In this document: piece after piece, positions 1 through 19,872 of the stretch
How the letters are laid out: each line of letters begins with the position of its first letter
How positions within the stretch are numbered: the first letter of the stretch is position 1
Source: Candidatus Iainarchaeum sp.
GTDB lineage: Archaea > Iainarchaeota > Iainarchaeia > Iainarchaeales > CSSED10-239
DNA: 19,964 nt
Assembly: GCA_937968065.1 (NCBI GenBank)
Contig: CALBUD010000001.1
Span: 1-19,964 of the forward strand
Direction: 5' to 3'
Translations under genes and position numbers: made by a program
The notes under the pieces: model-generated
Told to the model about the DNA's origin: nothing
The model's input: the letters and a program-made list of their open reading frames with translations, nothing else
Databases searched by the model: none

Positions 1-28
1 ATTACTCTGATTTTCATTGTTGTTTATT

Positions 29-441: not shown

Positions 442-447
442 CTATAA

Positions 448-1112: not shown

Positions 1113-1134
1113 ATAAAAATATAAAAGATAATTT

Positions 1135-3569: not shown

Positions 3570-4148
3570 ATGAAAAAATCTTTAAAACCTAGGCTCTTAA
3601 AAAATAAAACACCCACTAATCTAGTCATAAAAGAAAATAAAATAATTTTAAATCTTAAAAAAACTTCTATAAAACTTTTAATAAACACAAGTAATTTACC
3701 TAAAACATTTTATTCAACTACAAATGTTTCTAATTTAAAATCAATTAGACAAAAATTATTATCTGTTGAAAAAATATTAAAAGATGCAGAATATAAAAAT
3801 TCTTCTCAATTAATTTTTTTAGATAAAAAAGAATTAGATAATTTTATTTCTTTTTCTAAACTTTATAAACAAAAATTAGTTTCTTTAAAACTTAAATATT
3901 TAGATTCAAAAATATCTTCAACAATGATAGAAATTTTAAAAGAATTATCTGCACACACAAATAAATCTAATTTAAAAGAAAATCTTAAATTTTTTGATAA
4001 CTTTTTAGATGTTTATAATTTTTATAAACGGAAAAAAAATGATGAACCAAATAAACAATTATTCTCTTTAATGTTTAACTCTGCTTACAAAGGAGAAGAA
4101 CAAATAAAAAGATTAAAAAAAATAATAAGTCAAAGATATTTTACTTAA
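3570..4148 (+). CDS. hypothetical K/N/S-rich protein, probably co-transcribed with polB
   Basis: 192-aa ORF starting 14 nt after the polB stop. No recognisable motifs. An open frame this long is unlikely by chance in DNA this AT-rich. Confidence 0.5.
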   Translation: MKKSLKPRLLKNKTPTNLVIKENKIILNLKKTSIKLLINTSNLPKTFYSTTNVSNLKSIRQKLLSVEKILKDAEYKNSSQLIFLDKKELDNFISFSKLYKQKLVSLKLKYLDSKISSTMIEILKELSAHTNKSNLKENLKFFDNFLDVYNFYKRKKNDEPNKQLFSLMFNSAYKGEEQIKRLKKIISQRYFT

Positions 4149-5050: not shown

Positions 5051-5189
5051 GAAAAAAACCTTTTAAAAAGCAGTATTTTAATTATATATTAGTATAACAG
5101 TATTATATTTAAAGGTTTCCTCACTATAATATATAATTAATATATACTTATTTTATTAATAGGATTTATTTTTCTTAGAGGTGGATATT

Positions 5190-6242: not shown

Positions 6243-6245
6243 AGA

Positions 6246-6251
6246 AGTGAT
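6246..6251 (+). promoter_or_regulatory. Shine-Dalgarno-like AGTGAT, 6 nt upstream of secE ATG
   Basis: Read directly; the same motif class occurs before other genes here. Confidence 0.5.
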
Positions 6252-6257
6252 AAATTT

Positions 6258-6422
6258 ATGGGTAAATTAAAAGAGTTTTTTGCATCATCAAGAAGAATAT
6301 TAAATATTTCTCAAAAACCAACTAAAAAAGAATTTTGGTTTATGGCAAAAATAATAGCTTTAGGTATTTTAGTTATAGGTATTATAGGATATCTTGTAAA
6401 ATTAATTGCAAGTATATTTTAA
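6258..6422 (+). CDS. secE: protein translocase subunit SecE / Sec61 gamma
   Basis: Not in the ORF track (54 aa). Manual translation gives MGKLKEFFASSRRILNISQKPTKKEFWFMAKIIALGILVIGIIGYLVKLIASIF. It has the archaeal SecE pattern KPTK.E followed by a single TM with ALGI...GIIGY, and it sits in the conserved position directly upstream of spt5/nusG and rpl11. Confidence 0.88.
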   Translation: MGKLKEFFASSRRILNISQKPTKKEFWFMAKIIALGILVIGIIGYLVKLIASIF

Positions 6423-6423
6423 A

Positions 6424-6429
6424 AGTGAT
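6424..6429 (+). promoter_or_regulatory. Shine-Dalgarno-like AGTGAT, 5 nt upstream of spt5 ATG 6435
   Basis: Read directly. It supports ATG 6435 over the track start TTG 6429, which overlaps the motif. Confidence 0.5.
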
Positions 6430-6434
6430 TGAAC

Positions 6435-6872
6435 ATGATTTTTACAATAAGAACAACTGTTGGTCAAGAAAAAGTAATTATAGACCTTTTATCAAATAAA
6501 GCAAAACAAGAAGAACTTGAAGTTTTTTCAATAGTTGAAATGGCAGACTTAAAAGGATATCTTTTAGTTGAAGCTGATTCTAAAAAAACTGTTGAAATTT
6601 TAGTTCATAATGTTCCACACATAAAAGGTGGAAAGATTGTTGAAGGAAATATAAATATAGGTGAGATTGCAGGTGTCTTAGAATCAAGACCATTGATGAG
6701 TTCTATAAAACCAGGTCAAACAGTAGAAATTATTCTAGGTTCTTTTAAAGGTTTTAGAGCAAAAGTTATAAGAACAAATCTTGCAAAAGAAGAAGTTGTT
6801 ATTGAACTTTTTGATGCAAGTGTAAAAATACCAATAACCATAAAAGCAGAAAATATAAAATTATTAAATTAA
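6435..6872 (+). CDS. spt5: transcription elongation factor Spt5 (archaeal NusG)
   Basis: The N-terminus MIFTIRTTVGQEK is typical of archaeal Spt5 (NGN domain). KOW motif GQTVEIILGSFKGFRAKVIR is present. Flanked by secE and rpl11. Confidence 0.93.
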   Translation: MIFTIRTTVGQEKVIIDLLSNKAKQEELEVFSIVEMADLKGYLLVEADSKKTVEILVHNVPHIKGGKIVEGNINIGEIAGVLESRPLMSSIKPGQTVEIILGSFKGFRAKVIRTNLAKEEVVIELFDASVKIPITIKAENIKLLN

Positions 6873-6885
6873 AAATATTATAAAA

Positions 6886-6892
6886 GAGTGAT
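6886..6892 (+). promoter_or_regulatory. Shine-Dalgarno-like GAGTGAT, 6 nt upstream of rpl11 ATG
   Basis: Read directly. Confidence 0.5.
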
Positions 6893-6898
6893 AGAAAT

Positions 6899-7369
6899 AT
6901 GCCAACAATAAAAGTTTTAATTGAAGCTGGAAAAGCAAATGCTGGTCCTCCAATAGGTCCTGCTTTAGGTCCATTAGGTGTTAACACCATGGAAATTGTA
7001 AATGAAATTAATAATCAAACAAAACATTTAGAAGGTATGGAAATACCTATAAAGATACATATTGATACTAAAAAAAAGTTTTCAATAGAGTTAGGTTCTC
7101 CACAAACAGGAGCCTTAATAAAAAAAGAACTAAATATTAAAAAAGCAGCTTCAAAGGTAAAAGAAGAAGTTGTAGGAAACTTAACTTTTGATCAAGTTTT
7201 AAAAGTTACAAATGCAAAATATTCTCAACTTGTTTCAAAATCTAAAAAATCAGCTGTTAAAGAAATTTTAGGTTCTTGTAGAGCGATGGGTGTTAATGTT
7301 GAAGGTCTTCCAGCTCAAGAAATTATTAAAAAAGTAAATGCTGGAGAGTATGATTCTAAATTAAATTAA
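6899..7369 (+). CDS. rpl11: 50S ribosomal protein L11 (uL11)
   Basis: The N-terminal domain GKANAGPPIGPALGPLGVN is diagnostic. 156 aa, following spt5 as in most archaea. Confidence 0.95.
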   Translation: MPTIKVLIEAGKANAGPPIGPALGPLGVNTMEIVNEINNQTKHLEGMEIPIKIHIDTKKKFSIELGSPQTGALIKKELNIKKAASKVKEEVVGNLTFDQVLKVTNAKYSQLVSKSKKSAVKEILGSCRAMGVNVEGLPAQEIIKKVNAGEYDSKLN

Positions 7370-7378
7370 AGAATCATA

Positions 7379-7394
7379 TTTTTTTCTCTTTCTT
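7379..7394 (+). terminator. oligo-T tract (tttttttctctttctt) 10 nt after rpl11 stop; candidate archaeal terminator
   Basis: A 7-T run followed by more pyrimidines, at the start of the 109-nt gap downstream of rpl11. This marks the end of the ftsZ-secE-spt5-rpl11 run. Confidence 0.35.
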
Positions 7395-7466
7395 AAAATA
7401 AAAAGCTTTTTATTACTTAACTACTATATATTTATTAGTTTTTATAAATATATTTATAAGTAAAAA

Positions 7467-7473
7467 AGGTGAT
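7467..7473 (+). promoter_or_regulatory. Shine-Dalgarno-like AGGTGAT, 5 nt upstream of TTG 7479
   Basis: Read directly. It supports the non-ATG start of the following gene. Confidence 0.55.
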
Positions 7474-7478
7474 TTTTC

Positions 7479-7958
7479 TTGAAAATTCAAATAAAATATT
7501 TAATAGGTTTCTTTTCAATTTTTTTATTATTATTTGTAACAAGTAATATTTATGCATATAACGATCAATCAATAAGAATTGAAATGGTAAATACTGTAAG
7601 ATCTGGTGCTAATTTTAATGTTCAATTTATAGTTGAAGGAGGAACCAGAAACTTTGATTATAATGTTTACTCTCCTGCTGGTGGAAGTTCTATAGCTAAT
7701 GGATCAGGATCTGGAACCAAAACAGTACAAATAAATGCAACTGACTTTGAACCTTCTGCAAACCCATACCTTATAAGAGCAAAACTTAAAGATATTGACG
7801 ATAATCCTTCAAATGACATCTATTATAAATATTTCACAGTCATAAGATCAGAAGATAAAACACCTGTAAGTGACTTACCTTTATTTTCAGGAATTTTTAT
7901 TGCTTTAATAGCTGTTGCATTTATATCTTTTAGAAATTCTAAAACTAAAAAAAAATGA
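7479..7958 (+). CDS. small secreted/surface protein with N-terminal signal peptide and C-terminal tripartite anchor or sorting-signal-like tail
   Basis: TTG start with a strong SD. The N-terminus is MKIQIKYLIGFFSIFLLLFVTSNIYAY. A roughly 100-aa beta-rich core follows. The C-terminus is PLFSG-IFIALIAVAFISF-RNSKTKKK: a short motif, then a hydrophobic helix, then a basic tail. Confidence 0.6.
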   Translation: MKIQIKYLIGFFSIFLLLFVTSNIYAYNDQSIRIEMVNTVRSGANFNVQFIVEGGTRNFDYNVYSPAGGSSIANGSGSGTKTVQINATDFEPSANPYLIRAKLKDIDDNPSNDIYYKYFTVIRSEDKTPVSDLPLFSGIFIALIAVAFISFRNSKTKKK

Positions 7959-7964
7959 GAATGA

Positions 7965-8894
7965 ATGGAAAATCAAACAAAAGAATATGACTTAGATATT
8001 TTAAAAAAAGCAGGAAAACTAAATTTTAAAACTCAAAAATTTGCACAAAAAATAATAAAGGTTGGTTGTGATCTTTCAAAAATAGGTCTTGAGATAGATA
8101 AGTTTATTTTAGATAACGATGCTGTTCCTGCCTGGCCTGTTAATCTTTCAATAAATAATGAAGCTGCTCACAACACCTATGATCTTGAAAACTCTGTTTT
8201 TTTAAAAGAAGATGATATTTTAAAAGTAGATGTTGGAGTTTCAATAAATGGAAATATTGCAGATTCAGCTCAAACAATTATTTTTAATAAAAAACATCAA
8301 GATTTAAAAGATGCAAGTTTAAATGCTCTCTTATCTGTTAAAAAAAAAATATTAGAAGATTATAAATCTTTAAAAATATCAGATATTGGAAAAATAATAG
8401 AAACTGAAATTAAAAAAAAAGGTTTTCTTCCTGTTTCAAATCTTACAGGACATGCTATTGAAAGATATAAGCCTCATGCCTCTCCTTCTTTTCCAAATGT
8501 TTCAAACAACATAAATATTTTTCTAAAAGATATTAACCTTCCTTTTGCAATAGAACCTTTTGCATCAACAGGAACTGGTTTTGTAAATGAATCTGAAAAA
8601 GTAATCATCTTTGAACATGTAGAAGATAGACCTGTAAGAAACAAAGATGCAAAAAACATTTTAGAAGAAATTAAAAAATATAATGGTATGCCTTTTTCAG
8701 AATACTGGATAGGAAAATCATTATCCACTTTTCAAAGAAGATTTGCTTTAAGAGAGCTTTTAAAAAATGAAATTATTTCAAGCTATCCAGTCTTAATAGA
8801 TGTTAAAGATAGTTTTATCTCTCAAGCAGAAACAACCTTTATAATTGATGAAAAAGAAGGTGCTTTAGATTTGGTGAATATTGATGAATTATAA
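7965..8894 (+). CDS. map: methionine aminopeptidase, type 2 (archaeal M24 family)
   Basis: All five metal-ligand contexts are present in order: LKVDVG, NIADSAQT, LTGHAIERYK, FAIEPFAS, SQAETTFII. PAWPVNLSINNEAAHNT matches the archaeal MAP pattern. Confidence 0.9.
   Translation: MENQTKEYDLDILKKAGKLNFKTQKFAQKIIKVGCDLSKIGLEIDKFILDNDAVPAWPVNLSINNEAAHNTYDLENSVFLKEDDILKVDVGVSINGNIADSAQTIIFNKKHQDLKDASLNALLSVKKKILEDYKSLKISDIGKIIETEIKKKGFLPVSNLTGHAIERYKPHASPSFPNVSNNINIFLKDINLPFAIEPFASTGTGFVNESEKVIIFEHVEDRPVRNKDAKNILEEIKKYNGMPFSEYWIGKSLSTFQRRFALRELLKNEIISSYPVLIDVKDSFISQAETTFIIDEKEGALDLVNIDEL
8873..8877 (+). promoter_or_regulatory. Shine-Dalgarno-like GGTGA inside the map 3-prime end, 6 nt upstream of ATG 8884
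   Basis: Read directly. It implies translational coupling, with an 11-nt overlap between map and the next gene. Confidence 0.45.
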
Positions 8895-9858
8895 AGAAGT
8901 TTTTAATAAAAGAGGACTTTTAAAAATGTCTTTAATATCTGCATCAATAATTATGTGGATGTTTTTTTATACTTCTTCAAATATTTCAATTAACTCAATA
9001 ATCATCTTTGATCTTCCAAGAATAGTCACAACCATTTTAACTCTAGACTTTTTGTTTTTTCTTTTATTTTTTCCAATAACCACAGCAATTTGTATAGCCT
9101 TGTCTGTCGGAAAAGACAAACATGTTGATCTTTTAGAGATATTTTTAGGTATAACTGTTGGTTTTTTAGCCTCTTTTTTATTATTTACATTCTCATCTAA
9201 CTTTTTATTATTTGCAATGTTTTATCTAGTATCTCATCTTATCTTATCTATTCTAACTTATAATAAATTTAAAGATAGAGGTAATCTTACAACTCTTGCA
9301 AATTTTGCAAATTCAAAAATAGTTCTTTTAATATGTCTTTCTTTGTTTTTAACAGTTTTTTTAATAATTCTTCCAAATCAAGCAAGCTATTCTGAAAAAA
9401 TGAAAGTTGGTCTTGTAAATCTTTTTGTTGGAGATGATATTAGTAATTGGCTTGGCACTTCATATAGCATAAGTAAAGCAAGCACAGTTTCTGCTGTAAA
9501 CTTTATAACAGAGAAAGAAGAATACCAAAGATTAAAAAACATACAGAATACAGATGTTTATAATTATATAGATTTTATGGAAGATTTAAAAAAAGAGGTT
9601 TCTGAAAAAACCTCAAAAGAAGAAATTCAAAGAATATATGCAAATCTTGATTCTTTAGAAGTTAAAAATAATATTTATCATACAATTTCAAATATGCCTT
9701 TAATGATTGTCTTTAATCAATTTTTTGCATTGTTTTATGCAATTATTTTTGCAACAGTTGCACAATTATATCTTTCAATTGCCTTTTCTTTAATAGGACT
9801 TTTATATGTTTATATTTTCTTTAGAGTTTTTTATGGAAAAAAAGAAAAAGAGGATTAA
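8884..9858 (+). CDS. hypothetical polytopic membrane protein (N-terminal TM bundle, about 100-aa soluble loop, two C-terminal TMs)
   Basis: The track ORF starts at TTG 8881; I prefer ATG 8884 on SD spacing. Hydrophobic segments occupy the first ~170 aa and the last ~55 aa. No GxGD or other catalytic motif seen. Confidence 0.6.
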   Translation: MNYKEVFNKRGLLKMSLISASIIMWMFFYTSSNISINSIIIFDLPRIVTTILTLDFLFFLLFFPITTAICIALSVGKDKHVDLLEIFLGITVGFLASFLLFTFSSNFLLFAMFYLVSHLILSILTYNKFKDRGNLTTLANFANSKIVLLICLSLFLTVFLIILPNQASYSEKMKVGLVNLFVGDDISNWLGTSYSISKASTVSAVNFITEKEEYQRLKNIQNTDVYNYIDFMEDLKKEVSEKTSKEEIQRIYANLDSLEVKNNIYHTISNMPLMIVFNQFFALFYAIIFATVAQLYLSIAFSLIGLLYVYIFFRVFYGKKEKED

Positions 9859-9871
9859 AAAAAGATTATAT

Positions 9872-11182
9872 ATGAAAAAAATATTTTTAATTATTGGCTT
9901 TTTAATTTTACTATCTTCTCAAATATTCTCTTTATCTTTATTTGGTGCTCAAGATATTTCAAAAAAATATCTTTCAGAAAATGAAATGATAGATACTTTT
10001 ACACAACCAAAAATATCTTGTGAAAATCAAGATTATTTTGTAATACCAATAATTAATTCTTTAGGAGAACCTGTTCTATTTATTCCAATTTCTATAAAAG
10101 ATTCAGAACTTTATATAAGTAAAACAGATTCATTTAACATAAAGCTTATAAAAACTGAATATCTTTTAAAAGAACTCATAAATTCTGATCCAAATAACTA
10201 TTTATCTTCTCAATTAATAGATAGGTTTGATTCTTTAATAAATGTTCTCAATTCTAAAAAGGCACAACTTGAAGGTCTTTCAAACAAAGGATATTCTTTT
10301 GATGTAAATGATAAATTAACGATAACTACAAACAATTTAGATAATTTAATTTCTTCTTTAACTATTTTAAGAGAGAATCTAAATCAATTAATAATAAATC
10401 AAAATTCTTTTTTATTTTCTCCTGATTGTGATGACACCTCTTCTCTTTTAGTTTCTTTTGAAGATTCTTTTAAAGGATATAATGAACTTTCACAAATATC
10501 TCAAAATTATCTTCAATCAACAGATCAATTAATAACAGCAATTGTTTCTGATGAATCAATACCTTCTCAGGACACTTCAAGTATTATCTCAATAGCATCA
10601 GCTCCTCAAAATATAACTTCTCAAATAAACTATATTTCTGAAAGATTATCTTCTACAAGTTCTTTTTATTTAAAAATATCAAATAACCTTAAAGGTTCTT
10701 TAGGAGATCAAAAAATAAAAATACATGTTGATAATTTAGTTTTAAGAAAAAATTATGTAATTTTAAAAGATCTTTATGAAAAATATGATTCTTCTTTTCC
10801 AAACTATAGCAACTTAGAGGCTGTTATTCAAACAATTTTAAATCCAGAATATAGATTTTACTGGAAAGAGATAGAAGAAGTAAATAATATTCAATCTTTG
10901 TATAACGATATTAAAGAACATTCTCAAAAAGCTCAATATTCTCAAGCAATTTCAAAAACATCTATTTTAAAAACAAAATCTTTAAAAGTTTTAGAAGCTG
11001 GTTTCAATGATCAAGAAACAGAAACTGATTGGTTTTATTATATTTCTATTGGAGTTATAATTATTATTTTAATTATCTTTTTAATAATTTTAAGAAAAAG
11101 AGGGTTTTCTAAAAAAAAGTTTTCAAAGAAAAAAACTTCTAAAAAAGAAACTGATGTTTTTAATTTTGAAGATCCTTTTTAA
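9872..11182 (+). CDS. large secreted type I membrane protein (signal peptide, S/N/L-rich helical ectodomain, C-terminal TM, basic FSKKK-repeat tail)
   Basis: The track ORF opens at 9806 and overlaps the previous gene. The in-frame ATG 9872 gives a classic signal peptide, MKKIFLIIGFLILLSSQIFSLSLFGAQD. The C-terminal TM is WFYYISIGVIIIILIIFLIIL, followed by RKRGFSKKKFSKKKTSKKE. Confidence 0.6.
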   Translation: MKKIFLIIGFLILLSSQIFSLSLFGAQDISKKYLSENEMIDTFTQPKISCENQDYFVIPIINSLGEPVLFIPISIKDSELYISKTDSFNIKLIKTEYLLKELINSDPNNYLSSQLIDRFDSLINVLNSKKAQLEGLSNKGYSFDVNDKLTITTNNLDNLISSLTILRENLNQLIINQNSFLFSPDCDDTSSLLVSFEDSFKGYNELSQISQNYLQSTDQLITAIVSDESIPSQDTSSIISIASAPQNITSQINYISERLSSTSSFYLKISNNLKGSLGDQKIKIHVDNLVLRKNYVILKDLYEKYDSSFPNYSNLEAVIQTILNPEYRFYWKEIEEVNNIQSLYNDIKEHSQKAQYSQAISKTSILKTKSLKVLEAGFNDQETETDWFYYISIGVIIIILIIFLIILRKRGFSKKKFSKKKTSKKETDVFNFEDPF

Positions 11183-13182
11183 TTTTTAAAATTTTCTTTT
11201 TGTTTATAATCTCTTAAAAATTTATTAAACTCAACATAATCTTTTGGAACTTTTTCAACAAGTTCTAAAATAAATTTAGTTCTGTTTAATATTATTTCAG
11301 ACATTCTTACTTTTGATATGTTATGTTCAGTACAAATTTCTTTTAAAACATCACTATTATAAACAATTGGAAGTTCTTTTGTAAAAAGATCACTTTGAGA
11401 GGTTACGCTTTTTTCTTTAAATTTATCTATTGATTTATAAATAACATTATATTCTATTTTATTATCTTTTTTATTAAATCCTTTAATCTCATCAATTTCT
11501 TTTATTTCTCTTTTATTTTCACCAATACCTGCAAAACCAGTTACAACAACAATATCAAGACTTGTTAAAAGTGAAGGATCTAAAGAGATTGGTGGTGTTG
11601 TTATTCTTGTAATTAAACTTTCTGTACTCTTTGAGTGAACTGTAGATAAAGAAGAGTGACCAGAAGCCATACCCTGAAACATTAAAGACATTTCTTCTCC
11701 TCTAACTTCACCAATGATTAAATAATCAGGTCTTTGTCTGAATGATTCTTTTAAAAGATCATTCATTGTTATTTCACCATATTTTTTTCCTGTACTATCA
11801 GGTGGTCCAAAACCAGGTCTTGTTATTTGTGGAATCCAATTTTCAAGTAAAAGATTAATTTCTCTTGTGTCTTCAATTGATACAACTCTTTGTGCTTCTG
11901 GGATAAAAGAAGAAATTACATTTAAAAGTGTTGTTTTTCCACCAGCTGTAGGCCCTATAAGAACCATATTTTTTTTAAACTCAATTAATGTCCAAAGATA
12001 TGCAACAATCTCTGGTGTTACAGTTTCTGATTTTATAAGATCAACTGTGGTTAAAGGTTTTTGAGGAAACTTTCTAATTGTAAATGTAGGTCCTCTAGTT
12101 GAAACATTTGAAGTTAAAGTTGCATTTACACGAGAACCATCTGGTAAAATAGCATCTAAAAGAGGAGAGGCATATGAAACATAACTTTTACAAAGATGTG
12201 CTATTTTTATAACAAATTGTTGAAGTTCATTTTCTGTATTAATAGATATATTTGTAACTATGTGTCCATATTTTCTATGAACTATAAAAATAGGTATACC
12301 TATACCATCACACTCAATATCTTCAATTAATGGATCATGCATTAATGGTTCTATCTTATCAAGTCCACTTACCTGTCTCATTATATAATATACTATTTTT
12401 TCTTTTTTTTCTTTATCAAGTTTTACTTTATTTTTTGTAAATATTTTTTCAATTAAAGTATACATTTGATTTTCATCATTAAGGTCTGATAATGAGATTT
12501 TATTTATTAAAGTATCTCTAGTATTTTTTAAAACTTGTTCTTCTTCTTTTGTAAGTTCTGGTTCTGCAACAACATATGTTCTTCCATTATTATTTTCTTT
12601 TATGAAAGCATATGCAAAACCATGTATAAGCACTTGATAATTTTCAGGAAGTAGTTCTTTTGGAGGTTCAAAAACAGGTTTCGCAATTTCTAAAGATTCT
12701 TTTTTAGCTATTTTGTTTAATTCTTTTTTATCTTCTTTAAATGTAAAAATTTTTGAGAAAATACTTGCTCTGTCTTTTTTAACAACTTTTGAAACAGGTT
12801 TTTCTTTTCTTTCTTCAATTACAGGTTCTATTTTCTTTTCAATAACTTTTTCTTTAACTTTAGTTGGTTTTTTAGAAAATAGTTTTTTAAAGAAAGAAGG
12901 CTTTTTAATTTTATAAATAGGTATTTTTTTAAAATCTAGTTCTTTTGAAAATTCAGATAATAGGTTATTTAACTCTATAAATTCTAATATTTCTTTTTGA
13001 TTTTTCTTTTTAAAATTAGAGTATAATTTTTTTTCTTTAAGTTTTAAAATAGCGTCTTTTTTAGAAATTTTTCCTAATAAAAAATTTGAAATAATTTTTT
13101 CTTCTTCTTTATCTTCTTCAATTTTTTGAAGTATTTCTATTTTATTTGTTATTTCTTTTGTTTTTAAAGAAGAAAAAATCAT
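11179..13182 (-). CDS. type II/IV secretion-family ATPase (archaeal FlaI/ArlI / PilB-like type IV filament assembly ATPase) with long N-terminal extension
   Basis: Walker A GPTAGGKTT (nt 11929..11955), Asp box RVVSIEDTREI, Walker B PDYLIIGEVRGEE, His box SGHSSLSTVHS. The N-terminal domain pattern YVVAEPELTKEE is typical of archaeal members. Residues 1-177 are K/E-rich and have no counterpart in the canonical family. Confidence 0.9.
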   Translation of the reverse strand: MIFSSLKTKEITNKIEILQKIEEDKEEEKIISNFLLGKISKKDAILKLKEKKLYSNFKKKNQKEILEFIELNNLLSEFSKELDFKKIPIYKIKKPSFFKKLFSKKPTKVKEKVIEKKIEPVIEERKEKPVSKVVKKDRASIFSKIFTFKEDKKELNKIAKKESLEIAKPVFEPPKELLPENYQVLIHGFAYAFIKENNNGRTYVVAEPELTKEEEQVLKNTRDTLINKISLSDLNDENQMYTLIEKIFTKNKVKLDKEKKEKIVYYIMRQVSGLDKIEPLMHDPLIEDIECDGIGIPIFIVHRKYGHIVTNISINTENELQQFVIKIAHLCKSYVSYASPLLDAILPDGSRVNATLTSNVSTRGPTFTIRKFPQKPLTTVDLIKSETVTPEIVAYLWTLIEFKKNMVLIGPTAGGKTTLLNVISSFIPEAQRVVSIEDTREINLLLENWIPQITRPGFGPPDSTGKKYGEITMNDLLKESFRQRPDYLIIGEVRGEEMSLMFQGMASGHSSLSTVHSKSTESLITRITTPPISLDPSLLTSLDIVVVTGFAGIGENKREIKEIDEIKGFNKKDNKIEYNVIYKSIDKFKEKSVTSQSDLFTKELPIVYNSDVLKEICTEHNISKVRMSEIILNRTKFILELVEKVPKDYVEFNKFLRDYKQKENFKN

Positions 13183-13206
13183 ATTTCATCAATATTCCCT
13201 ATAAAA

Positions 13207-13554
13207 TCAATTTTTTTCTTTTATTTCAGCACTATTATCTAGTTCTGTTTTTTTATTATAAAGATCTTTTAGGATATTAAGTTTATCACTTACATCGTTA
13301 ATCATATCTGCAATCTCATTCCAAATAATTTTTCTTTGATTTGTATTATATTCAAGATTTTTTTGATTAACTTCTTGTAAAGTTGCATAAGTAAATTTTG
13401 TAATTTCTTCTTTTTCAAGTTTATCTTTAGTTTTTTTAATTTCTTGTGAAATTGTTTCTTTGTGTTCCTCAAGAGCTCTTAAAATCTCTAACTTTGCCAC
13501 TATAGAATTACAATTTGTTGAAATTGTACCAATATTTTCTTTTATTTCGTTCAT
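13207..13554 (-). CDS. hypothetical small soluble coiled-coil protein immediately upstream of the ATPase
   Basis: 115 aa. ATG lies 8 nt downstream of AGGTG (plus-strand 13563..13567). Heptad-like charged sequence with no TM and no Walker motif. A 24-nt gap separates it from the ATPase start. Confidence 0.55.
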   Translation of the reverse strand: MNEIKENIGTISTNCNSIVAKLEILRALEEHKETISQEIKKTKDKLEKEEITKFTYATLQEVNQKNLEYNTNQRKIIWNEIADMINDVSDKLNILKDLYNKKTELDNSAEIKEKN

Positions 13555-13562
13555 ATTTTTAA

Positions 13563-13567
13563 CACCT
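13563..13567 (-). promoter_or_regulatory. Shine-Dalgarno-like AGGTG for the 115-aa gene
   Basis: Plus-strand cacct, which reads AGGTG on the minus strand, 8 nt before ATG 13554. Confidence 0.5.
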
Positions 13568-13635
13568 TCTAAATAATTTTCATAAATATATTATAAATTA
13601 TTAGTTCGTTTACTTTATAAAGCTTTCTTTTTTAA

Positions 13636-14097
13636 TTATTGTGTGTGTACCATTTTTTCTTTATTGTTGTATATCTCTATATAGTATTTAAGATTTTCAG
13701 CTCTTAAAATTTCAAAAAAACATTCCCCAAAACTAATATCTTCAAAAACATCATCTTCAGAAAGAGTAATTGTATTATTATCTTCTATGATGTCATAATC
13801 TTCTTTAAGATAATTACTTAGATAATAATTTTCTTCTCCGTCATAAACCACAACACAGATTTTACTACTATAGTTATTTGATTTAATATAATCTACAAAA
13901 GAAGAATTTAAAAGATCTAAACTTTCTTCAGAAAGCTCATTTTCAACTAAATATTTTATTTCATTTTTATAATTATTAATTATTTTTTGAGCTTTGTTTT
14001 CTTGAAAGTTAATATTTTTTGAAAGTAAGAATAACATTGTTGTAAATATCATTATAAAGATAACAATTATAATATATGTAAATCCTTTTTCTTTCAT
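13636..14097 (-). CDS. type IV pilin-like / FlaF-FlaG-like small protein with class III signal-peptide-like N-terminus
   Basis: The track ORF starts at TTG 14118. The in-frame ATG 14097 lies 4 nt downstream of AGTGA (14102..14106) and gives MKEKG-FTYIIIVIFIMIFTTMLFLL: a short basic leader, then K-G, then a hydrophobic helix, resembling the prepilin G/FT(L)I motif. The remainder is soluble and beta-rich. Confidence 0.6.
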   Translation of the reverse strand: MKEKGFTYIIIVIFIMIFTTMLFLLSKNINFQENKAQKIINNYKNEIKYLVENELSEESLDLLNSSFVDYIKSNNYSSKICVVVYDGEENYYLSNYLKEDYDIIEDNNTITLSEDDVFEDISFGECFFEILRAENLKYYIEIYNNKEKMVHTQ

Positions 14098-14101
14098 TTT
14101 T

Positions 14102-14106
14102 TCACT
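14102..14106 (-). promoter_or_regulatory. Shine-Dalgarno-like AGTGA for the pilin-like gene
   Basis: Plus-strand tcact, 4 nt before ATG 14097 on the minus strand. Confidence 0.45.
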
Positions 14107-14108
14107 TT

Positions 14109-14480
14109 TTATGTCCAAATCAATATATTTAATGTTTTATGACTATCAAAAAAATAATAGTTAACTGCATAAACAGGAAGATTTTCAGGAATTGTTTCTC
14201 CAAAAGTTAAACAATTTTCACTCTCTTCTAAAAAATCACAAAGTTTTACAGAATATTTTAAATTTATATGTGTATAAAAAGAATTATAGATTGCTTCAAC
14301 ATTATTTTCAGAAACACTCTCTCTAAAATCATTTTCTTGTGCTTTAAGATTTATAACATCATAGGTTTTATCTAAAAGTGTTTTCTCTTTATAATCATTG
14401 TAGGTATAACTATTAAATAAAACTAACATAAACAATATAAGAATCATAATAGCTATTATAGCTTCAACAGACTTTATCAT
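14109..14480 (-). CDS. small protein with pilin/FlaG-like N-terminal hydrophobic helix
   Basis: 123 aa beginning MIKSVEAIIAIMILILFMLVLF. The hydrophobic helix starts at residue 5 and carries a Glu at position 6, reminiscent of the pilin +5 Glu. There is no canonical K/R-G/A cleavage site. The soluble C-terminal domain is about 95 aa. Confidence 0.5.
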   Translation of the reverse strand: MIKSVEAIIAIMILILFMLVLFNSYTYNDYKEKTLLDKTYDVINLKAQENDFRESVSENNVEAIYNSFYTHINLKYSVKLCDFLEESENCLTFGETIPENLPVYAVNYYFFDSHKTLNILIWT

Positions 14481-14494
14481 AATTATTTCAAAAT

Positions 14495-15469
14495 TTACTT
14501 TAATAAACCATATAGCATATTTTCAACTATAGAATAATATTTAGCTTCATCATCATTTTCTATTAAATATTCTGGAGGAAGAGCATAATAGGCAACTCTA
14601 TTAGAATTACTTAAAACAATTAATGGAAAGACTCCATCAGAACCATAAGAGGTTTCTTGATCTGAAAAAAGTCTTGATCCATAATCAAGTTTTAATGGAG
14701 TTGTTATAGGTCTTAAAGTTTCAATAATTGCAAAATCATCTCTTACTTCAAGAAAACTTCTAAGTCCATAGACAATAGAATGATCTGAAGAAGGCACTAA
14801 AACTCCGTTATTTGTAACTGGCCTTTTAAATTCTAAAACTATTCCTGAATATTCAGAAACTGTTTTTTTTTCACATTCTTTAACTTCACAATAGTTTTTA
14901 AGATAGGTAACTCCTAAAAAATCATCAAATCTTATCATATAATTATCAGCATTTAATCTTGCCCATCCACTTACAAAGTTTGAATCAAAAGAACCTTCAA
15001 TATCTCCTTTTGTTAAATATTGATCACTCTGTGTTTCAAGTTCAATTCCAGCATCTCCAACCCAGACAAGTCTTCCTCCTTTAGATACATAGTTCATAAA
15101 CATTTCAAGCTTTGGAGTTGATATTTTTCTTGATCTTGTAACTATTACTAAAGCTTCACTTTTAAGTTTTTCTTCACTAAGATAATTAATATTTTCTAAC
15201 CTAACATTCATCCCAATTATCTTATTATCTTTTATTGTTTTTTCAAGAAGATATGGATTTCCAAGTCCTTCTGTATCATTAGGGTTATAGACTATAAGAA
15301 TGCTTGGTTGTTGTTTACCTGTCATTAATGTTTGAGTTCCCCAATATAAAGAACACATGCCAGGAACAGATCTACATCTCAGGGTTCCTGCCCACACCAT
15401 TAGATAAAGTAAAATAATTATTAATAACACTATTGTTATAATTTTCCAAATAAGTTTTTTTTTAATCAT
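14495..15469 (-). CDS. N-terminally anchored (or Sec-secreted) extracellular protein with two Cys pairs
   Basis: 324 aa. MIKKKLIWKIITIVLLIIILLYLMVWAG is a signal anchor or signal peptide. Cys pairs occur at TLRCRSVPGMC and NYCEVKEC. The central stretch ALVIVTRSRKISTPKLEMFMNYVSKGGRLVWVGDAG weakly resembles flavodoxin/GATase1-like stack domains; this is tentative. Confidence 0.6.
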   Translation of the reverse strand: MIKKKLIWKIITIVLLIIILLYLMVWAGTLRCRSVPGMCSLYWGTQTLMTGKQQPSILIVYNPNDTEGLGNPYLLEKTIKDNKIIGMNVRLENINYLSEEKLKSEALVIVTRSRKISTPKLEMFMNYVSKGGRLVWVGDAGIELETQSDQYLTKGDIEGSFDSNFVSGWARLNADNYMIRFDDFLGVTYLKNYCEVKECEKKTVSEYSGIVLEFKRPVTNNGVLVPSSDHSIVYGLRSFLEVRDDFAIIETLRPITTPLKLDYGSRLFSDQETSYGSDGVFPLIVLSNSNRVAYYALPPEYLIENDDEAKYYSIVENMLYGLLK

Positions 15470-15524
15470 ATTTTATCTTTCTCTTTACATAAATATTATA
15501 AGAGTAAGTTATTTAATAGTTTCC

Positions 15525-15544
15525 TATATATTAATATATATTAA
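15525..15544. promoter_or_regulatory. perfect 16-bp palindrome TATATATTAATATATA (15525..15540), also a tandem 10-mer tatatattaa x2 (15525..15544), in the divergent intergenic region
   Basis: Read directly. It lies between the divergent starts at 15469 (minus) and 15557 (plus) and is a candidate pair of back-to-back TATA boxes. Significance is limited by the AT-rich background. Confidence 0.3.
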
Positions 15545-15556
15545 TGGTGTTATTTT

Positions 15557-15721
15557 ATGAAATTAAAACAAATGAAAAATACAAATCAAGGTCCAAGTAG
15601 TGTAATTGGAATAATGAAATTTAATGAAAGCATGGGTGGATATAAACTATCCCCTGAAATGATTATTGGTTTATCATTAGGTTTTGTTGTAGTTATATTA
15701 ATTTTAAAAATGTTTATTTAA
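15557..15721 (+). CDS. secG: protein translocase subunit Sec61 beta (archaeal SecG)
   Basis: Not in the ORF track (54 aa). Manual translation gives MKLKQMKNTNQGPSSVIGIMKFNESMGGYKLSPEMIIGLSLGFVVVILILKMFI. This fits the archaeal Sec61beta pattern: an S.(A/I)G(L/I)..(Y/F).(D/N)E block, then a conserved Pro, then one C-terminal TM. GGTG sits 7-8 nt upstream of the ATG. Confidence 0.75.
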   Translation: MKLKQMKNTNQGPSSVIGIMKFNESMGGYKLSPEMIIGLSLGFVVVILILKMFI

Positions 15722-17547
15722 TTAGGTTTTATTAAAACCTTTACAATTTCTTCTTCTCCATTTTGATTTAGATATTTTGAGATTCTTTCAAATAATTTAA
15801 AATTTCCTACAAATCCATAATTTCCAATTTCAATATTTTCTTTATTATTAAAAATATTTATATAATAATCATCTTCATTATCTTCATTATTTATGTTATA
15901 ATCTTGTATTTTTTCATATGTTATTAATGTTTCTTTTTCTTTATAAAAATTAACAATTGGATTTTCTTGTATTTCTTCTCTAATTCTTGATTTAACAATT
16001 GTTTTTCTATCACAATCATATATTTTTAGATTTCCATTTGTAATCTCAATTAAACAATTTGTTTTTCTATTATTAATATCTAAAAAATTAAATAACAAAT
16101 ATTTATTTTCTAATTTATTGATTATTTGTATGTTTTGTTCAGTTTCAAATGATTTGTCTGAAAATAAAAGTGAATCGTTTATAGTTGTTACATTAATAAC
16201 ATTGTTTGGTATTCTGACCTCGTGATTTATAAGATCATCTTCACTTGTATTTTCAATTTCTAATCTATAAAGGTTATTTCCTAAATTATAAACAGTTACG
16301 TCTGGATTTGTTTGAGAGTTATAATCTTTTAAAAAAGAATCTTCTGGTTGAAATCCATCTGTTTTTTTAAGATAAATTGTTTTCATACTATTTTGGTCAA
16401 TATCCATATTTATCCAGATATAAAAAGATTCATCTTCTTCTATTTCATAATCATAATGATTTATTTGTAAGTCTTCTAAGATAATTTCAATTTCTTCATC
16501 TTCTTCTATAATTATTAAAAATTCAGGAGTGTTTGGAAAACCTATAAATTTATGTTCATTTAAAGAATTTTTTATAACTACAGGGTGATTTTCTTTTAAA
16601 GAATAGTTTAAAGTGTCTTGATAGTTAAGAGTTATTTTTCCAAAAGTTTCTCTATTATAAAATAAATCTATTTCAATATTATTGTTATCTATTAAAAAAT
16701 CATAATAATTAGTTTGAATTTTTGCATCTTCAATAAGTGAGTTATCAAAAAATAAAGTTAATCTGTCAATATAATGTTCTTGTTTATTTTTAATAATTAT
16801 TTTTCCTGAGTTTATAGAACTTTGTGTATTATTATTTATTTGATAATCATTTATCTTACATTCAGCCTCTCCTAAAAAATTACTTTTAAAATTAAAATTA
16901 ATATACCAATAATCATCTAAATTAACATCTACATTATCAATTAGATAAAGTCCACTTATATTTTTGTCATACAATTTTAAATTATTTTCTTTTAGTTCAC
17001 ATAAAGAATAATTATCATTATCTTGATAATTAAAATAAATATTTACATCCACCGGTTCAATTATATATTCTCCAAAAATATTTGAATAATTTTGTTTACT
17101 TTCAATAGTAGTGTCTTCAAAAGCATAAGCTTCTCCTTCAAAATTAATTATCTCTCCACTAATAATTTCTATATTTTTAAGATTATTAGTATCTAAAAAA
17201 GATTCTTTAAAAATATTTGTTTTTGTTGGAATTTCTAAAGAATTAAAATTATAAAATTTAGAGTTATTTAAAATTGTTCCATAAAGATAATCATCTTCTA
17301 TAACATAATTACTATTTGCTCTTCCATAATTATTATCTAATAATAAAAGATAAGTTTGATTATAATTACTATCTGTATAAAAATTATAAATAATTATGTT
17401 ATCTATTAACTTTGAAAAAACTAAATTTGAAAATTGTGCATCTTCTTGAAAAGAAGTTTCTGGTAGAAATTTAGGGATGGCTGTAATTACAGCTAAAATA
17501 ACAAAAACAAATATTACAAAAGAAACTATCCAGTCTATATGCTCCAT
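15718..17547 (-). CDS. large N-terminally anchored Asn/Ile/Tyr/Asp/Glu-rich extracellular protein, no recognisable family
   Basis: 609-aa uninterrupted ORF. The N-terminal helix is MEHIDWIVSFVIFVFVILAVITAIPKF. The remainder is hydrophilic and beta-prone. Starts 12 nt after the stop of the upstream 491-aa gene. Confidence 0.65.
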   Translation of the reverse strand: MEHIDWIVSFVIFVFVILAVITAIPKFLPETSFQEDAQFSNLVFSKLIDNIIIYNFYTDSNYNQTYLLLLDNNYGRANSNYVIEDDYLYGTILNNSKFYNFNSLEIPTKTNIFKESFLDTNNLKNIEIISGEIINFEGEAYAFEDTTIESKQNYSNIFGEYIIEPVDVNIYFNYQDNDNYSLCELKENNLKLYDKNISGLYLIDNVDVNLDDYWYINFNFKSNFLGEAECKINDYQINNNTQSSINSGKIIIKNKQEHYIDRLTLFFDNSLIEDAKIQTNYYDFLIDNNNIEIDLFYNRETFGKITLNYQDTLNYSLKENHPVVIKNSLNEHKFIGFPNTPEFLIIIEEDEEIEIILEDLQINHYDYEIEEDESFYIWINMDIDQNSMKTIYLKKTDGFQPEDSFLKDYNSQTNPDVTVYNLGNNLYRLEIENTSEDDLINHEVRIPNNVINVTTINDSLLFSDKSFETEQNIQIINKLENKYLLFNFLDINNRKTNCLIEITNGNLKIYDCDRKTIVKSRIREEIQENPIVNFYKEKETLITYEKIQDYNINNEDNEDDYYINIFNNKENIEIGNYGFVGNFKLFERISKYLNQNGEEEIVKVLIKPN

Positions 17548-17559
17548 ATTTATTCAAAA

Positions 17560-19035
17560 TTATTCTACAGTTATTGTAAGATTGTTTGTAATAATGTTTG
17601 TTTCTTCCATTCTAAATGGATGTTTGTACTCCACAACAATATTACACATTCTAATATTATTTATAAGATTACCTATAAGGTTAGGATCAATAGCACTAAC
17701 ATTTACTAAAATTTCTGGTTTTGTATTTCTATTAACTTTCATATTTAAAAGTGCATTTTCAGATATGAAAATAAAATTATTACAATCTTTTCTAATAGGA
17801 TCAAGATCTAAAACTTCAATTGAAGCAATATCTATATCAATTGTACTTTTATTATCAAGAGTTAGTCTTAATATTTCAACATTTGTGACATTATTATTCA
17901 CATCATACTTTAGTTTAACATCTGTTTTATTTAAACTTGTTGTAAAACTTATGTTTGGTTCTTTAATAGTTATTGTTATTGGAATTTCTTTTACTTCTCT
18001 AAAAACAGAACTATTAAATATTAATTTTCCTTCTAAACTATCATCTCTTGCAGTCTGTGGAACTGATATTGATATACTTTTTGTTTCATTTTTAGACGCA
18101 TCTACAAATATGTTTCCTAAAGGATATGTAAACCAAGAATTTACATCTTCATTATTGTTACTTGTAATTTCTAAAGATAAAGTTAAATCAGGAATTGAAA
18201 TTTTATTTCTGGAATTATTTATTGTTATGTTATAATTTTTATTTTCTCCACTTTTTATTTCTCCAGATAAATTTCCTGTAATAGGTACGTTTGGTTCTTC
18301 TATAATTTCAAAATTTATTTTTTTTTCTTGTTCTTTATATTTTACTCGTACACTAATGTTATTAGTTTTCTTTTTAGTATCTTGCACAATATATCTTAAA
18401 CTTATTTTATCTTCTGTTAAAGGATATAATAAAGCATCTTGTTTACTTATCGGGTCGTTATAAAAATCAACAGTTATAAAATCCCATTCTTTAATATCTC
18501 CCTCTATAATTAAATCATCTACATTATAAGTTGTTGTTTGAGAGGTATTTTCATAATAAATTTCTAAAATTGCTGTTTGTCCAACATATACTTTTTCAGG
18601 AAAAACAATATTCTTAATATTAATAGGAATATTTTTTTCTAAAGTTACTGTTTCAAGTTTTATTTTTGTGCTTTTAAGATCAATTTCTTTTTTTAATTGA
18701 TTATATCCAGTTGCTTGAACACTATAATGATAATTTCCTTTTTTTATTTTTGTAATTTCGTTATTTGATAAAGTTTTAATCACGTTTGTAATCATTGGAT
18801 CTTTTGAAATTCTAATAACTGAAGGAATCACATCTCCTTCTGTGTTCTTAACATCAAAACTTACTTCTACTTGATTTAAAAATAAAAAACTAACGGCATA
18901 ATAGATTCCAAAACCAATAAGCAAAATAACTAAAATAACTGTTATCATCTGATTATTGTGTTTATTTGGTTTATCTTTATAACTATCTGAATAATAACTA
19001 TTATTTCCTGAAAAAGGATCAAAATCTTTACTCAT
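17560..19035 (-). CDS. bitopic membrane protein: ~29-aa cytoplasmic N-tail, one TM, ~430-aa ectodomain of Ig/PEGA/CARDB-like beta-sandwich repeats
   Basis: 491 aa. TM is MITVILVILLIGFGIYYAVSFLFL. KGNYHYSVQATGYNQLKKEIDL resembles the PEGA/carboxypeptidase-regulatory-like pattern, and PEKVYVGQTAILEIYYENTS resembles CARDB-like domains; both are pattern-level resemblances only. The start codon directly abuts the upstream stop (TAAATG). Confidence 0.65.
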   Translation of the reverse strand: MSKDFDPFSGNNSYYSDSYKDKPNKHNNQMITVILVILLIGFGIYYAVSFLFLNQVEVSFDVKNTEGDVIPSVIRISKDPMITNVIKTLSNNEITKIKKGNYHYSVQATGYNQLKKEIDLKSTKIKLETVTLEKNIPINIKNIVFPEKVYVGQTAILEIYYENTSQTTTYNVDDLIIEGDIKEWDFITVDFYNDPISKQDALLYPLTEDKISLRYIVQDTKKKTNNISVRVKYKEQEKKINFEIIEEPNVPITGNLSGEIKSGENKNYNITINNSRNKISIPDLTLSLEITSNNNEDVNSWFTYPLGNIFVDASKNETKSISISVPQTARDDSLEGKLIFNSSVFREVKEIPITITIKEPNISFTTSLNKTDVKLKYDVNNNVTNVEILRLTLDNKSTIDIDIASIEVLDLDPIRKDCNNFIFISENALLNMKVNRNTKPEILVNVSAIDPNLIGNLINNIRMCNIVVEYKHPFRMEETNIITNNLTITVE

Positions 19036-19872
19036 TTATTTTACCTCATTTGCTTTTGATAAAGCATATCGTGTACTTAAAAGTTCGTCTTTAAGTTCTT
19101 TTATAAGTTCTAATGCAATTTTTTCTTTTTCATTATTACTTCTGTTAATTTCATTAACATCGTTATTTAATTTTTTAATAACTCTATACATTTCTGTAAT
19201 TTCATTCTCAACTTTTATTAAATGAACATTAAGTAATGTTGAATTTTTTTCATTAATTTTTATTTTTTTAATTAATTCATTTTCAAGATTAGTTACAAGT
19301 GATTCTTTTGCTTTTTCTTTTGCTGAAAGCCATTTATAATCTTGTATTTTTTTAGTAAGCTCTCTTATTGAGTTTTCTTTTTCACTAATTATTCTTAATA
19401 GTTCTTCTATTGATTTTTTTTGAGTTAAAATATTTAAATATTTATGTTTTATTTTTTCTTTAGCATCTTCTACAAAAGAATTAAATAAATTTATTTCGTT
19501 TTTTATTTCTTCTTCTAAATCATAGAATATTTGTGGTCTTGTAATTGCTTCTTTAATATTTATTAACTCGTGATTTATTTCTTTTTTGTTTATTTCAAGA
19601 AAAATTTGAGAGTTAATTTTATTTGATATCATTAAAAAATTTTGATAAAAAAGATCCATTTTAGACCCAATTAATTCTGAGGAATACTGTATTGCAGTAT
19701 ATTTATTAATTTCTAGTATTTTTCTTGCAAGAAGATCTATATTTTCTTTTAAATAGTTTAATTTTTCAATAAGTTCTTTTTTTTCTAGTTTATATAAAGG
19801 AGTTGACATTTCTCTATAAATCTCTCTTGATTTTAATAGAACTTCATCTAAATATTCAAGTATATTTTTCAT
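19036..19872 (-). CDS. soluble all-helical coiled-coil protein, first gene of the three-gene module
   Basis: 278 aa, rich in K/E/I/L/N with long heptad-like stretches. No TM and no nucleotide-binding motif. Its stop abuts the ATG of the next gene. Confidence 0.6.
   Translation of the reverse strand: MKNILEYLDEVLLKSREIYREMSTPLYKLEKKELIEKLNYLKENIDLLARKILEINKYTAIQYSSELIGSKMDLFYQNFLMISNKINSQIFLEINKKEINHELINIKEAITRPQIFYDLEEEIKNEINLFNSFVEDAKEKIKHKYLNILTQKKSIEELLRIISEKENSIRELTKKIQDYKWLSAKEKAKESLVTNLENELIKKIKINEKNSTLLNVHLIKVENEITEMYRVIKKLNNDVNEINRSNNEKEKIALELIKELKDELLSTRYALSKANEVK

Follow-up and report, generated by a model that had tools for sequence, protein, structure and literature searches.

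A current survey takes a pair of components, an ATPase and a membrane platform protein, as the mark of every archaeal type IV filament (TFF) system (bioRxiv 10.64898/2026.04.22.720090). A second survey describes an ATPase/TadC module for archaeal filaments, reports that the pilins are commonly encoded in trans to it, and provides, in the haloarchaeal and other archaeal ATPase/TadC modules with trans-encoded pilins, a precedent for a split TFF system (PMC4858521). Since surveys take the ATPase and the platform as the core, locus-based detection expects to find both. Here, we analyzed an entire contig of 19,964 bp (CALBUD010000001.1, hereafter the window; ~23% GC) from the DPANN archaeon Candidatus Iainarchaeum sp., on which a run of eight minus-strand genes includes an ATPase of the type IV filament kind and no platform gene. 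Because DPANN archaea probably rely on contacts with other cells, their surface machinery is of direct interest; the role in cell-cell contact that the first-pass annotation considered for this locus is speculative. We conclude that the window carries a rearranged archaeal TFF (pilus-type) locus, specific to a lineage of Iainarchaeum-like DPANN archaea, and that it is most likely a split system whose platform would be encoded in trans.

The first-pass annotation of this DNA had listed eight minus-strand open reading frames (ORFs) running from position 19872 down to 11179, and had remarked that neither a platform nor a prepilin peptidase gene lay among them. All eight ORFs were found where they had been placed, with a Sec61beta gene on the other strand as the sole interruption, and none of the window proteins matched T2SSF (the platform family) or the A24 prepilin peptidases. 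An A24 peptidase that is not encoded in cis is ordinary for archaea. The same is true of pilins encoded in trans; only the missing platform is unusual.

Could the missing platform be an accident of this assembly? Orthologs of the ATPase at 56–74% identity form ~59 protein clusters, several of which come from metagenome-assembled genomes labelled Candidatus Iainarchaeum (also spelt "ainarchaeum"). We compared ~39 loci of this clade, seven of them genomic (the window, L001–L005 and L008) and 32 metagenomic, the latter found with a profile of the 324-aa protein, and examined flanks of up to 10 kb on each side of each locus. Hidden Markov models (HMMs) built from DPANN T2SSF proteins matched every sister locus scanned, whereas no T2SSF protein was found in the ~39 clade loci within these flanks, and the same flanks contained no PilA-like major pilin. 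All loci that were long enough had the same order: Sec61beta on the opposite strand, then the 324-, 123-, 160- and 115-aa genes, the ATPase, and the convergent 458- and 325-aa genes. These results indicate that the platform-less state in cis is a fixed trait of the lineage, not an assembly accident. The conserved linkage to the ATPase in related genomes, on which the earlier reading of this locus had been made to depend, is present for the core genes.

The next-closest ATPases, at ~40–50% identity, lie in canonical DPANN loci, namely, L009 (CAZKED010000004.1), L011 (JBDRCV010000008.1) and L012 (Ga0366834_1052608); more distant ones lie in L006, L010, L013 and L046/L047. In canonical loci, two T2SSF genes follow the ATPase, either directly or after one inserted gene. 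L048 and L049 contain the same T2SSF pair, with the upstream gene cut by the contig end, and are probably canonical as well. Several PilA-like prepilins with cleavage sites of the type K-G↓V-S-P-L-I-A are encoded in L006 and L009–L013, the loci whose upstream parts were inspected. Ahead of the ATPase, three of these (L009, L011 and L012) share an order consisting of a surface protein of 675–2211 aa followed by proteins of ~120, ~170, sometimes ~240, and ~113 aa. These three loci resemble "System 1" or subsystem 4A of DPANN archaea (bioRxiv 10.64898/2026.04.22.720090; PMC4858521).

The canonical series of a large N-anchored protein, a ~120-aa pilin-like protein, a ~170-aa prepilin, a ~115-aa soluble protein and the ATPase is collinear and homologous in the window. 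On the other hand, the clade has neither the T2SSF pair nor the PilA-like K-G↓V-S-P pilins in cis, and it lacks the DUF7289-like pilin of 235–245 aa present in L009 and L012. Conversely, the clade has acquired the 324-aa GATase1-like protein and an insertion of the Sec61beta gene. The arrangement also differs from that of the haloarchaeal-type modules, which keep the ATPase and the platform together with the pilins elsewhere (PMC4858521), whereas the window keeps the ATPase with minor pilin-like genes and is missing the platform.

Two sister loci show insertions of other kinds. In L011, an HD-domain (YfbR-like) gene (12154–12690) separates the ATPase from the T2SSF pair, which means that the junction between ATPase and platform was already open to insertion in this group. 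L013 (JAIYQX010000004.1), from a low-GC DPANN genome, has an apparently intein-bearing ATPase in an otherwise canonical pilus-type locus; the 1486-aa T2SSE protein (5330–9790) contains Intein_splicing matches on both sides of T2SSE, plus a LAGLIDADG endonuclease match.

The ATPase of the window matched Pfam T2SSE (1.1e-31). Its closest solved structure is Archaeoglobus fulgidus GspE (PDB 2oap, 2.4e-90), and the match to Sulfolobus FlaI (PDB 4ii7) was 2.6e-64. The T2SSE and 2oap matches uphold the proposal that a FlaI/PilB-type ATPase stands at the center of a type IV filament-type locus. Alignment with GspE (2oap/2oaq) and FlaI (4ii7/4ihq) takes in ~410–450 residues of the N-terminal and ATPase domains, including all of the nucleotide-binding motifs. 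The motifs that had been recognized from the letters alone (Walker A GPTAGGKTT, Asp box SIEDTREI, Walker B PDYLIIGEVRG and the His box) are all present, and they are kept in the 59 clade ATPase clusters, among which the mean identity is 76% in the ATPase core and 30% in the N-terminal extension. The retention of the motifs and the 76% core identity argue for a working ATPase and against a relic. Compared with the GspE and FlaI structures, the window protein has an extra, poorly conserved, Lys/Glu-rich N-terminal extension of ~190 aa, and its gene has no adjacent platform gene. The ATPases of sister clades have N-terminal extensions of 1–464 aa. As had also been noted, the ATPase is the only one of the eight proteins with a recognizable family; the other seven scored below every Pfam and NCBIfam threshold.

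Could the locus be a reduced archaellum, or an archaellum-like rotary apparatus, with the order flaG-flaF-flaH-flaI and no flaJ? In the archaellum operon arlF/arlG/arlH/arlI/arlJ (formerly flaF–flaJ), an ATPase of the same superfamily follows small proteins with pilin-like helices, which are perhaps uncleaved, as the 123-aa protein may be. Likewise, two small proteins with N-terminal transmembrane (TM) segments and one small soluble protein precede the ATPase of the window, which matched the NCBIfam FlaI model at 1.5e-91. However, its score on that equivalog model (NF058587) was 307.8 bits, far below the cut-off of 550, and the protein is closer to the non-archaellar GspE of A. fulgidus (2oap) than to FlaI. 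No archaellin, FlaJ, FlaX or FlaCDE match was found in the window, and none of the eight proteins matched the components by which an archaellum is recognized (ArlH, ArlJ, ArlF/ArlG and archaellins) in Pfam or NCBIfam. The 115-aa protein, which occupies the place of FlaH (ArlH, KaiC-like), was rejected as a candidate for it because it has no Walker A or P-loop and no KaiC/RecA match. In addition, the small proteins are homologous to accessory genes of pilus-type loci in which PilA-like pilins and a T2SSF pair are also encoded. The echo of an archaellum operon described in the first-pass annotation thus stands in one respect, the missing Walker A of the protein in the FlaH place, but fails as an analogy because the homologs belong to pilus-type loci with two T2SSF genes, and we regard a reduced archaellum as very improbable.

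The homology of the small proteins to those of the canonical loci was found in both direct and profile comparisons. The 115-aa gene, which is directly upstream of the ATPase and 47–81% identical within the clade, aligned over its full length with the 115-aa gene at the same position in L011 (BLAST, 28% identity, E 1.8e-13), and its family aligned with the sister ~113-aa family at 60% probability (hhalign, E 8.5e-5). It has no TM segment, reads as helical or coiled-coil, and matches no family; its position suggests a cytoplasmic partner of the ATPase. The 160-aa family, which matched no Pfam family, aligned with the sister ~170-aa family at 98.4% probability (hhalign, E 7.6e-15, 142 columns). 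The 160-aa protein itself matched L011 (BLAST, E 2.9e-5), and a full-length alignment of the family takes in L011, L012 and L009. Similarly, the 123-aa family aligned with the sister ~120-aa family (hhalign, 96.8% probability, E 3.1e-10), and the 123-aa protein matched a 128-aa gene of L011 (BLAST, E 1.3e-8). The 123- and 160-aa proteins are paralogs (hhalign, 92.7% probability). The description of both as pilin-like holds.

In the ~26 distinct orthologs of the 160-aa protein, a charged leader of 2–14 residues is followed by [KNR]-G and then by F-T-Y-I-I and a hydrophobic helix, giving a cleavage motif [KNR]-G-[FY] with the consensus K-G-F-T-Y. A leader of variable length ahead of a conserved Gly is typical of class III signal peptides, which A24 prepilin peptidases remove (PMC4858521). 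The 160-aa family thus has a predicted site of the class III type expected of TFF systems, and it is the only consistent class III candidate within the flanks of the clade loci. From this motif, the protein would be cut after the conserved Gly by an A24 peptidase. Since K-G↓F-T-Y is kept while the leader varies in length, the peptidase at least must be encoded elsewhere. In the window, the true start is probably the internal ATG at 14097 (MKEKGFTY), which gives ~153 aa as in the orthologs. One ortholog, in L023 (11355–12866), has 503 aa, with the same K-G↓F-T-Y-I-I start and a much longer C-terminal part.

The 123-aa family begins with M-[IT]-[KR]-S-x-E-x-x-I-[AS], which is near-invariant in 27 distinct orthologs. 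A leader-bearing homolog is encoded in L010 (16722–17132; RRRG↓FLHVFEVVFAI) and another in L013. The 123-aa protein therefore reads as a leaderless protein, either minor-pilin-like or membrane-anchored in the style of FlaF/G. The 609-aa family likewise has a pilin-like, leaderless start, M-E-[HY]-[IV]-D-W (M-E-H-I-D-W-I-V-S in the window), and its homolog in L013 (12213–13043) has MQKRG ahead of DSHVDWVIS. Judging from these alignments, the window forms of both proteins look like leaderless versions that start near the mature end of their leader-bearing homologs. Leaderless forms of both are also present in L011, which has a platform, so the leaderless trait is not tied to the missing platform.

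The first 194 aa of the 609-aa protein matched the 2211-aa FG-GAP/LamG protein of L011 (BLAST, E 3.6e-8), which starts with MHYIDWVVG. Identity within the clade is 24–52%, and the ectodomain evolves fast; the L008 ortholog carries DUF2341 (1.9e-10), and a profile search of the PDB with the family returned only a weak match to a neurexin LNS domain (E 0.043). Homologs lie upstream in most, not all, of the clade loci that reach that far. The N-terminal homology and the position shared with the large protein of the canonical loci indicate that the 609-aa protein belongs to the system, where, on these sequence grounds, the large adhesin-like protein corresponds to it.

The 324-aa gene is the best-conserved accessory gene, with 42–76% identity in 38 clade loci, and homologs were found only in this clade, none being detected in sister loci. 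Its product has one N-terminal TM anchor followed by an extracytoplasmic domain with four invariant cysteines (C32, C39, C194 and C199). An AlphaFold2 model made with a 23-sequence alignment reached a predicted local distance difference test score (pLDDT) of 75.7 and a predicted TM-score (pTM) of 0.75; a single-sequence model (pLDDT 38.5) was discarded. A Foldseek search of the PDB with the better model returned ThuA-like proteins (4jqs/4pxy), PurQ (3d54_D), GH42 beta-galactosidases and the N-terminal (GIFT) domain of IFT52 (5fms), with E values of 1.6e-7 to 1e-5 and target TM-scores of 0.54–0.64 for the single-domain matches (4jqs, 4pxy, 3d54_D, 5fms and 5fmr). In four orthologs, weak Pfam matches to ABC_transp_aux (GldG) or IFT52_GIFT fell on the same segment (E 0.005–0.08; 12–16 bits against cut-offs of 27–35). 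The model thus has the flavodoxin-like alpha/beta fold of ThuA, PurQ and the IFT52 N-terminus, and, on the strength of the predicted structure, the ectodomain is a GATase1-like (ThuA or GldG-IFT52 "GIFT"-like) domain.

The likeness to the ThuA and GldG-IFT52 GIFT domains is one of predicted fold, with sequence identity of 10–15% and sub-threshold Pfam scores. The 324-aa protein differs from these domains in being anchored outside the membrane and in having two conserved Cys pairs. The strand at residues 133–137 is followed by G-D-A-G, a position that we take, from the general architecture of the fold, to be that of the glutaminase nucleophile. With G-D-A-G at this presumed site, the domain would lack a catalytic Cys and would probably have no enzymatic activity. 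We found no published link between the GATase1-like/GIFT fold and type IV filament loci in the literature; to our knowledge, this is the first case in which a GATase1-like/GIFT-like ectodomain protein is linked to such a locus.

The two most distal genes are of a different character. The 491-aa protein has a ~30-aa cytoplasmic tail with an F-D-P-F motif, a TM segment at residues 28–54 and a ~430-aa ectodomain; orthologs are limited to the window, L001, L002, L004, L015, L016, L027–L030 and L033, with no family or PDB match. The 278-aa protein, which has no TM segment and reads as coiled-coil, is always paired with the 491-aa gene, is 40–77% identical within the clade, and has no family or PDB match either. 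Profile searches of the PDB with the 324-, 491- and 278-aa families found nothing significant, and a profile comparison detected no counterparts of the three proteins in sister loci. Close and remote clade members alike, up to the nearest and the most divergent, have the 278/491 pair. Its absence upstream in L008, L021, L023, L024 and L039, together with the flippase gene that separates the 491- and 609-aa genes in L001 and probably in L002, the glycosylation genes of L008 and the Sec61beta gene that divides the two halves of the cluster, suggests another view of the eight genes: the 278-, 491- and perhaps 609-aa genes might be unrelated neighbors of the ATPase module, and the eight-gene locus might result from synteny among related small genomes, since clade-wide synteny extends over the whole region and takes in its housekeeping genes. 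We give this view a little less than an even chance. Its force is confined to the 278/491 pair, however, because the 609-aa protein shares its pilin-like N-terminus and position with the canonical large protein, and so limited, it is compatible with a split TFF system. The 278/491 pair is an optional and probably separate membrane module, and its membership of the system is uncertain. The eight-gene unit proposed earlier holds for its core, 324-123-160-115-ATPase, which is invariant in the clade, but not for its distal part, where the 278/491 pair is variable and the 609-aa homolog is not in all loci.

The flippase gene of L001 (Polysacc_synt/MurJ-type) lies at 4304–5758 on the minus strand, between the 491- and 609-aa orthologs. 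At the same place, L002 has an opposite-strand ORF of similar size (4064–5521, minus strand), identified from its position only. In L008, positions 1–3050 contain flippase, GT22/PMT-like, GT2 and GtrA genes upstream. The pilus-type module thus borders a variable surface-glycosylation region.

On the other side of the ATPase, where canonical loci have their platform genes, the 325- and 458-aa genes adjoin the ATPase in all of the clade loci that are long enough. Is the polytopic 325-aa protein a diverged platform? This candidate was rejected: alignment of its family with T2SSF profiles gave probabilities of 7%, 10% and 1% (hhalign), and no T2SSF HMM matched it or the 458-aa protein. A YidC/EMC3-like reading was also dropped, as a weak EMC3_TMCO1 match appeared in only 1 of 12 members. 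The protein has a soluble insert of ~100 aa. Since the whole downstream region (MetAP, L11, Spt5, SecE and FtsZ) is syntenic as well, adjacency alone is no evidence of function.

These neighbors nevertheless bear on a further alternative, in which the clade has lost its TadC-like proteins and the ATPase uses another membrane partner (the polytopic 325-aa or the single-pass 324-, 491- or 609-aa protein); such a machine would be a novel device for attachment or secretion. The alternative draws on the absence of T2SSF in the flanks of the ~39 loci and in three wider T2SSF searches, on the departure of the PilA-like pilins from a locus in which the ATPase is still strongly constrained, and on the conserved, clade-specific gain of the 324-aa gene and a polytopic protein that is always beside the ATPase. 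It is weakened by the insensitivity of the T2SSF searches, which did not span whole genomes, by the cleavage site of the 160-aa protein, which shows that trans-encoded TFF components are still needed, and by the 325-aa protein itself, which has no T2SSF similarity and lies within a syntenic housekeeping block. Moreover, we know of no PilB/FlaI-type ATPase with demonstrated function in the absence of a PilC/FlaJ/TadC partner. We therefore consider a platform-independent machine unlikely. The same low probability applies to its fuller form, in which a clade without any TadC/FlaJ platform would use the ATPase and the 115-aa protein to power a filament or surface-display device, with the GIFT-like protein as a core part and perhaps with a role in host-cell contact.

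How far can the searches elsewhere in clade genomes decide between these possibilities? Some clade contigs of 671–978 kb may be near-complete genomes. Two word-index searches with T2SSF profiles returned 46 and 40 proteins, none of them on the large clade contigs (671, 698, 813, 839 and 977 kb), and missed members of the query family. An exhaustive T2SSF profile search likewise placed none on these contigs among the best 150 of 4854 representatives; those 150 end at 252 bits, and the T2SSF proteins of L009 and L012 score only 249 and 236 bits on the same profile. Because the searches missed, or ranked too low, such members of the query family, the genome-wide negative carries little weight either way, and a T2SSF protein of the Iainarchaeum clade could easily be hidden beneath 252 bits. 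The low-GC T2SSF representatives among the matches listed, checked by cluster and genomic context, were all in canonical ATPase + T2SSF loci of other DPANN lineages.

On balance, we favor the split system with the platform in trans, for three reasons: the ATPase is constrained, the site of the 160-aa protein needs a peptidase in trans, and components encoded in trans have precedent among archaeal TFF systems (PMC4858521). Of the two options that the first-pass annotation had left side by side, a split system and an uncharacterized machine, the former is thus the better supported and the latter less so. Several observations weigh on the other side. No platform or peptidase gene of the clade was found, insensitive as the T2SSF searches were. 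The 671-, 839- and 977-kb contigs contain no second ATPase at ≥ ~44% identity besides that of the clade, so that a shared platform would have to belong to a distant paralog or stand alone. The separation of the ATPase from the platform would also be unusual, the two being the defining pair in surveys (bioRxiv 10.64898/2026.04.22.720090; PMC4858521). Finally, the roles suggested for the 115-, 123-, 324- and 609-aa proteins derive from position, topology and fold only.

In this reading, the locus descends from the canonical DPANN order, with PilA-like pilins, an adhesin-like protein, the ~120-aa protein, the ~170-aa prepilin, the ~115-aa protein, the ATPase and two TadC-like T2SSF proteins. In the clade, the platform pair and the PilA-like pilins no longer adjoin the ATPase, and Sec61beta and the 324-aa gene are found within the cluster. 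From this observed gene content and the ATPase family, we infer every step of the following scheme. An ATPase hexamer, with the 115-aa protein as its partner, would sit at the membrane and drive a TadC-like platform protein encoded elsewhere in the genome. A PibD/FlaK-type peptidase, with its gene likewise at another place in the genome, would cut the 160-aa prepilin after the conserved Gly. Together with the leaderless 123- and 609-aa proteins, the processed 160-aa pilin might then prime or tip a short filament, on which the variable ectodomain of the 609-aa protein would be exposed, while the 324-aa ectodomain might act as an extracytoplasmic scaffold or glycan-binding partner at the filament base.

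What makes the locus worth attention is that, throughout a well-sampled DPANN lineage, the ATPase stays under constraint and minor pilin-like genes are retained without a platform or PilA-like pilin within flanks of up to 10 kb. If the platform lies elsewhere, locus-based classifiers probably under-call such systems, and the clade would offer a naturally occurring example in which ATPase and platform have become uncoupled. Should the clade have no platform at all, an exception would be needed to the mechanism of the superfamily, in which no platform-independent member would have preceded this one. The clade locus is a conserved oddity of its lineage and is not established as a new kind of machine. 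The analysis also brings out four undescribed families that recur in DPANN pilus-type loci: the ~115-aa ATPase-adjacent family, the two pilin-like families and the family with the H-[IV]-D-W N-terminus.

Table 1. Features of the 19,964-bp window around the ATPase gene, in descending order of position, followed by minor ORFs.
Feature	Coordinates	Strand	Description
278-aa protein	19036-19872	-	cytoplasmic, no TM segment
491-aa protein	17560-19035	-	single-pass membrane protein
609-aa protein	15718-17547	-	N-anchored surface protein
Sec61beta, 54 aa	15557-15721	+	Pfam Sec61_beta 1.1e-6
324-aa protein	14495-15469	-	TM anchor and predicted GATase1-like ectodomain
123-aa protein	14109-14480	-	pilin-like
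160-aa protein	13636-14118	-	pilin-like, predicted class III signal peptide
115-aa protein	13207-13554	-	soluble, no TM segment
ATPase, 667 aa	11179-13182	-	FlaI/GspE/PilB (VirB11-like) family
458-aa protein	9806-11182	+	signal peptide and C-terminal anchor; no Pfam/NCBIfam match
325-aa protein	8881-9858	+	polytopic membrane protein; no Pfam/NCBIfam match
159-aa protein	7479-7958	+	N-terminal signal-like segment, C-terminal TM anchor and basic tail; no family match
252-aa ORF	17477-18235	+	antisense to the 491- and 609-aa genes; Ile/Leu/Phe/Ser-rich

The window also encodes archaeal housekeeping proteins (family B DNA polymerase, an IF-2B-family protein, FtsZ, SecE, Spt5 and a MetAP-type Peptidase_M24 protein, in addition to Sec61beta) and L11, which was assigned from its translation and from an annotated ortholog in L008. 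No tRNA or Rfam match was found in the window, and a scan for bacterial-type promoters and terminators was uninformative, the sequence being archaeal and AT-rich. The stop codon of the ATPase overlaps the convergent 458-aa gene by 4 bp. The gene assigned to Sec61beta (29 bits against a cut-off of 27) shares 4 bp with the end of the 609-aa gene, is divergent to the 324-aa gene with an 87-bp spacer between the two, and occupies the same place in every clade locus covering the position. Sec61beta is no part of the filament system. With this opposite-strand gene in their midst, the eight minus-strand genes make up two or more transcription units.

The Asn-rich ectodomains that had been singled out earlier are an effect of composition in a genome of 23% GC, as both cytoplasmic proteins also contain 10–12% Asn. 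The antisense 252-aa ORF is most likely a spurious frame of AT-rich DNA. In relatives, the place of the 159-aa gene, flanked by the genes for L11 and MetAP, is taken by ORFs of similar size (163–170 aa).

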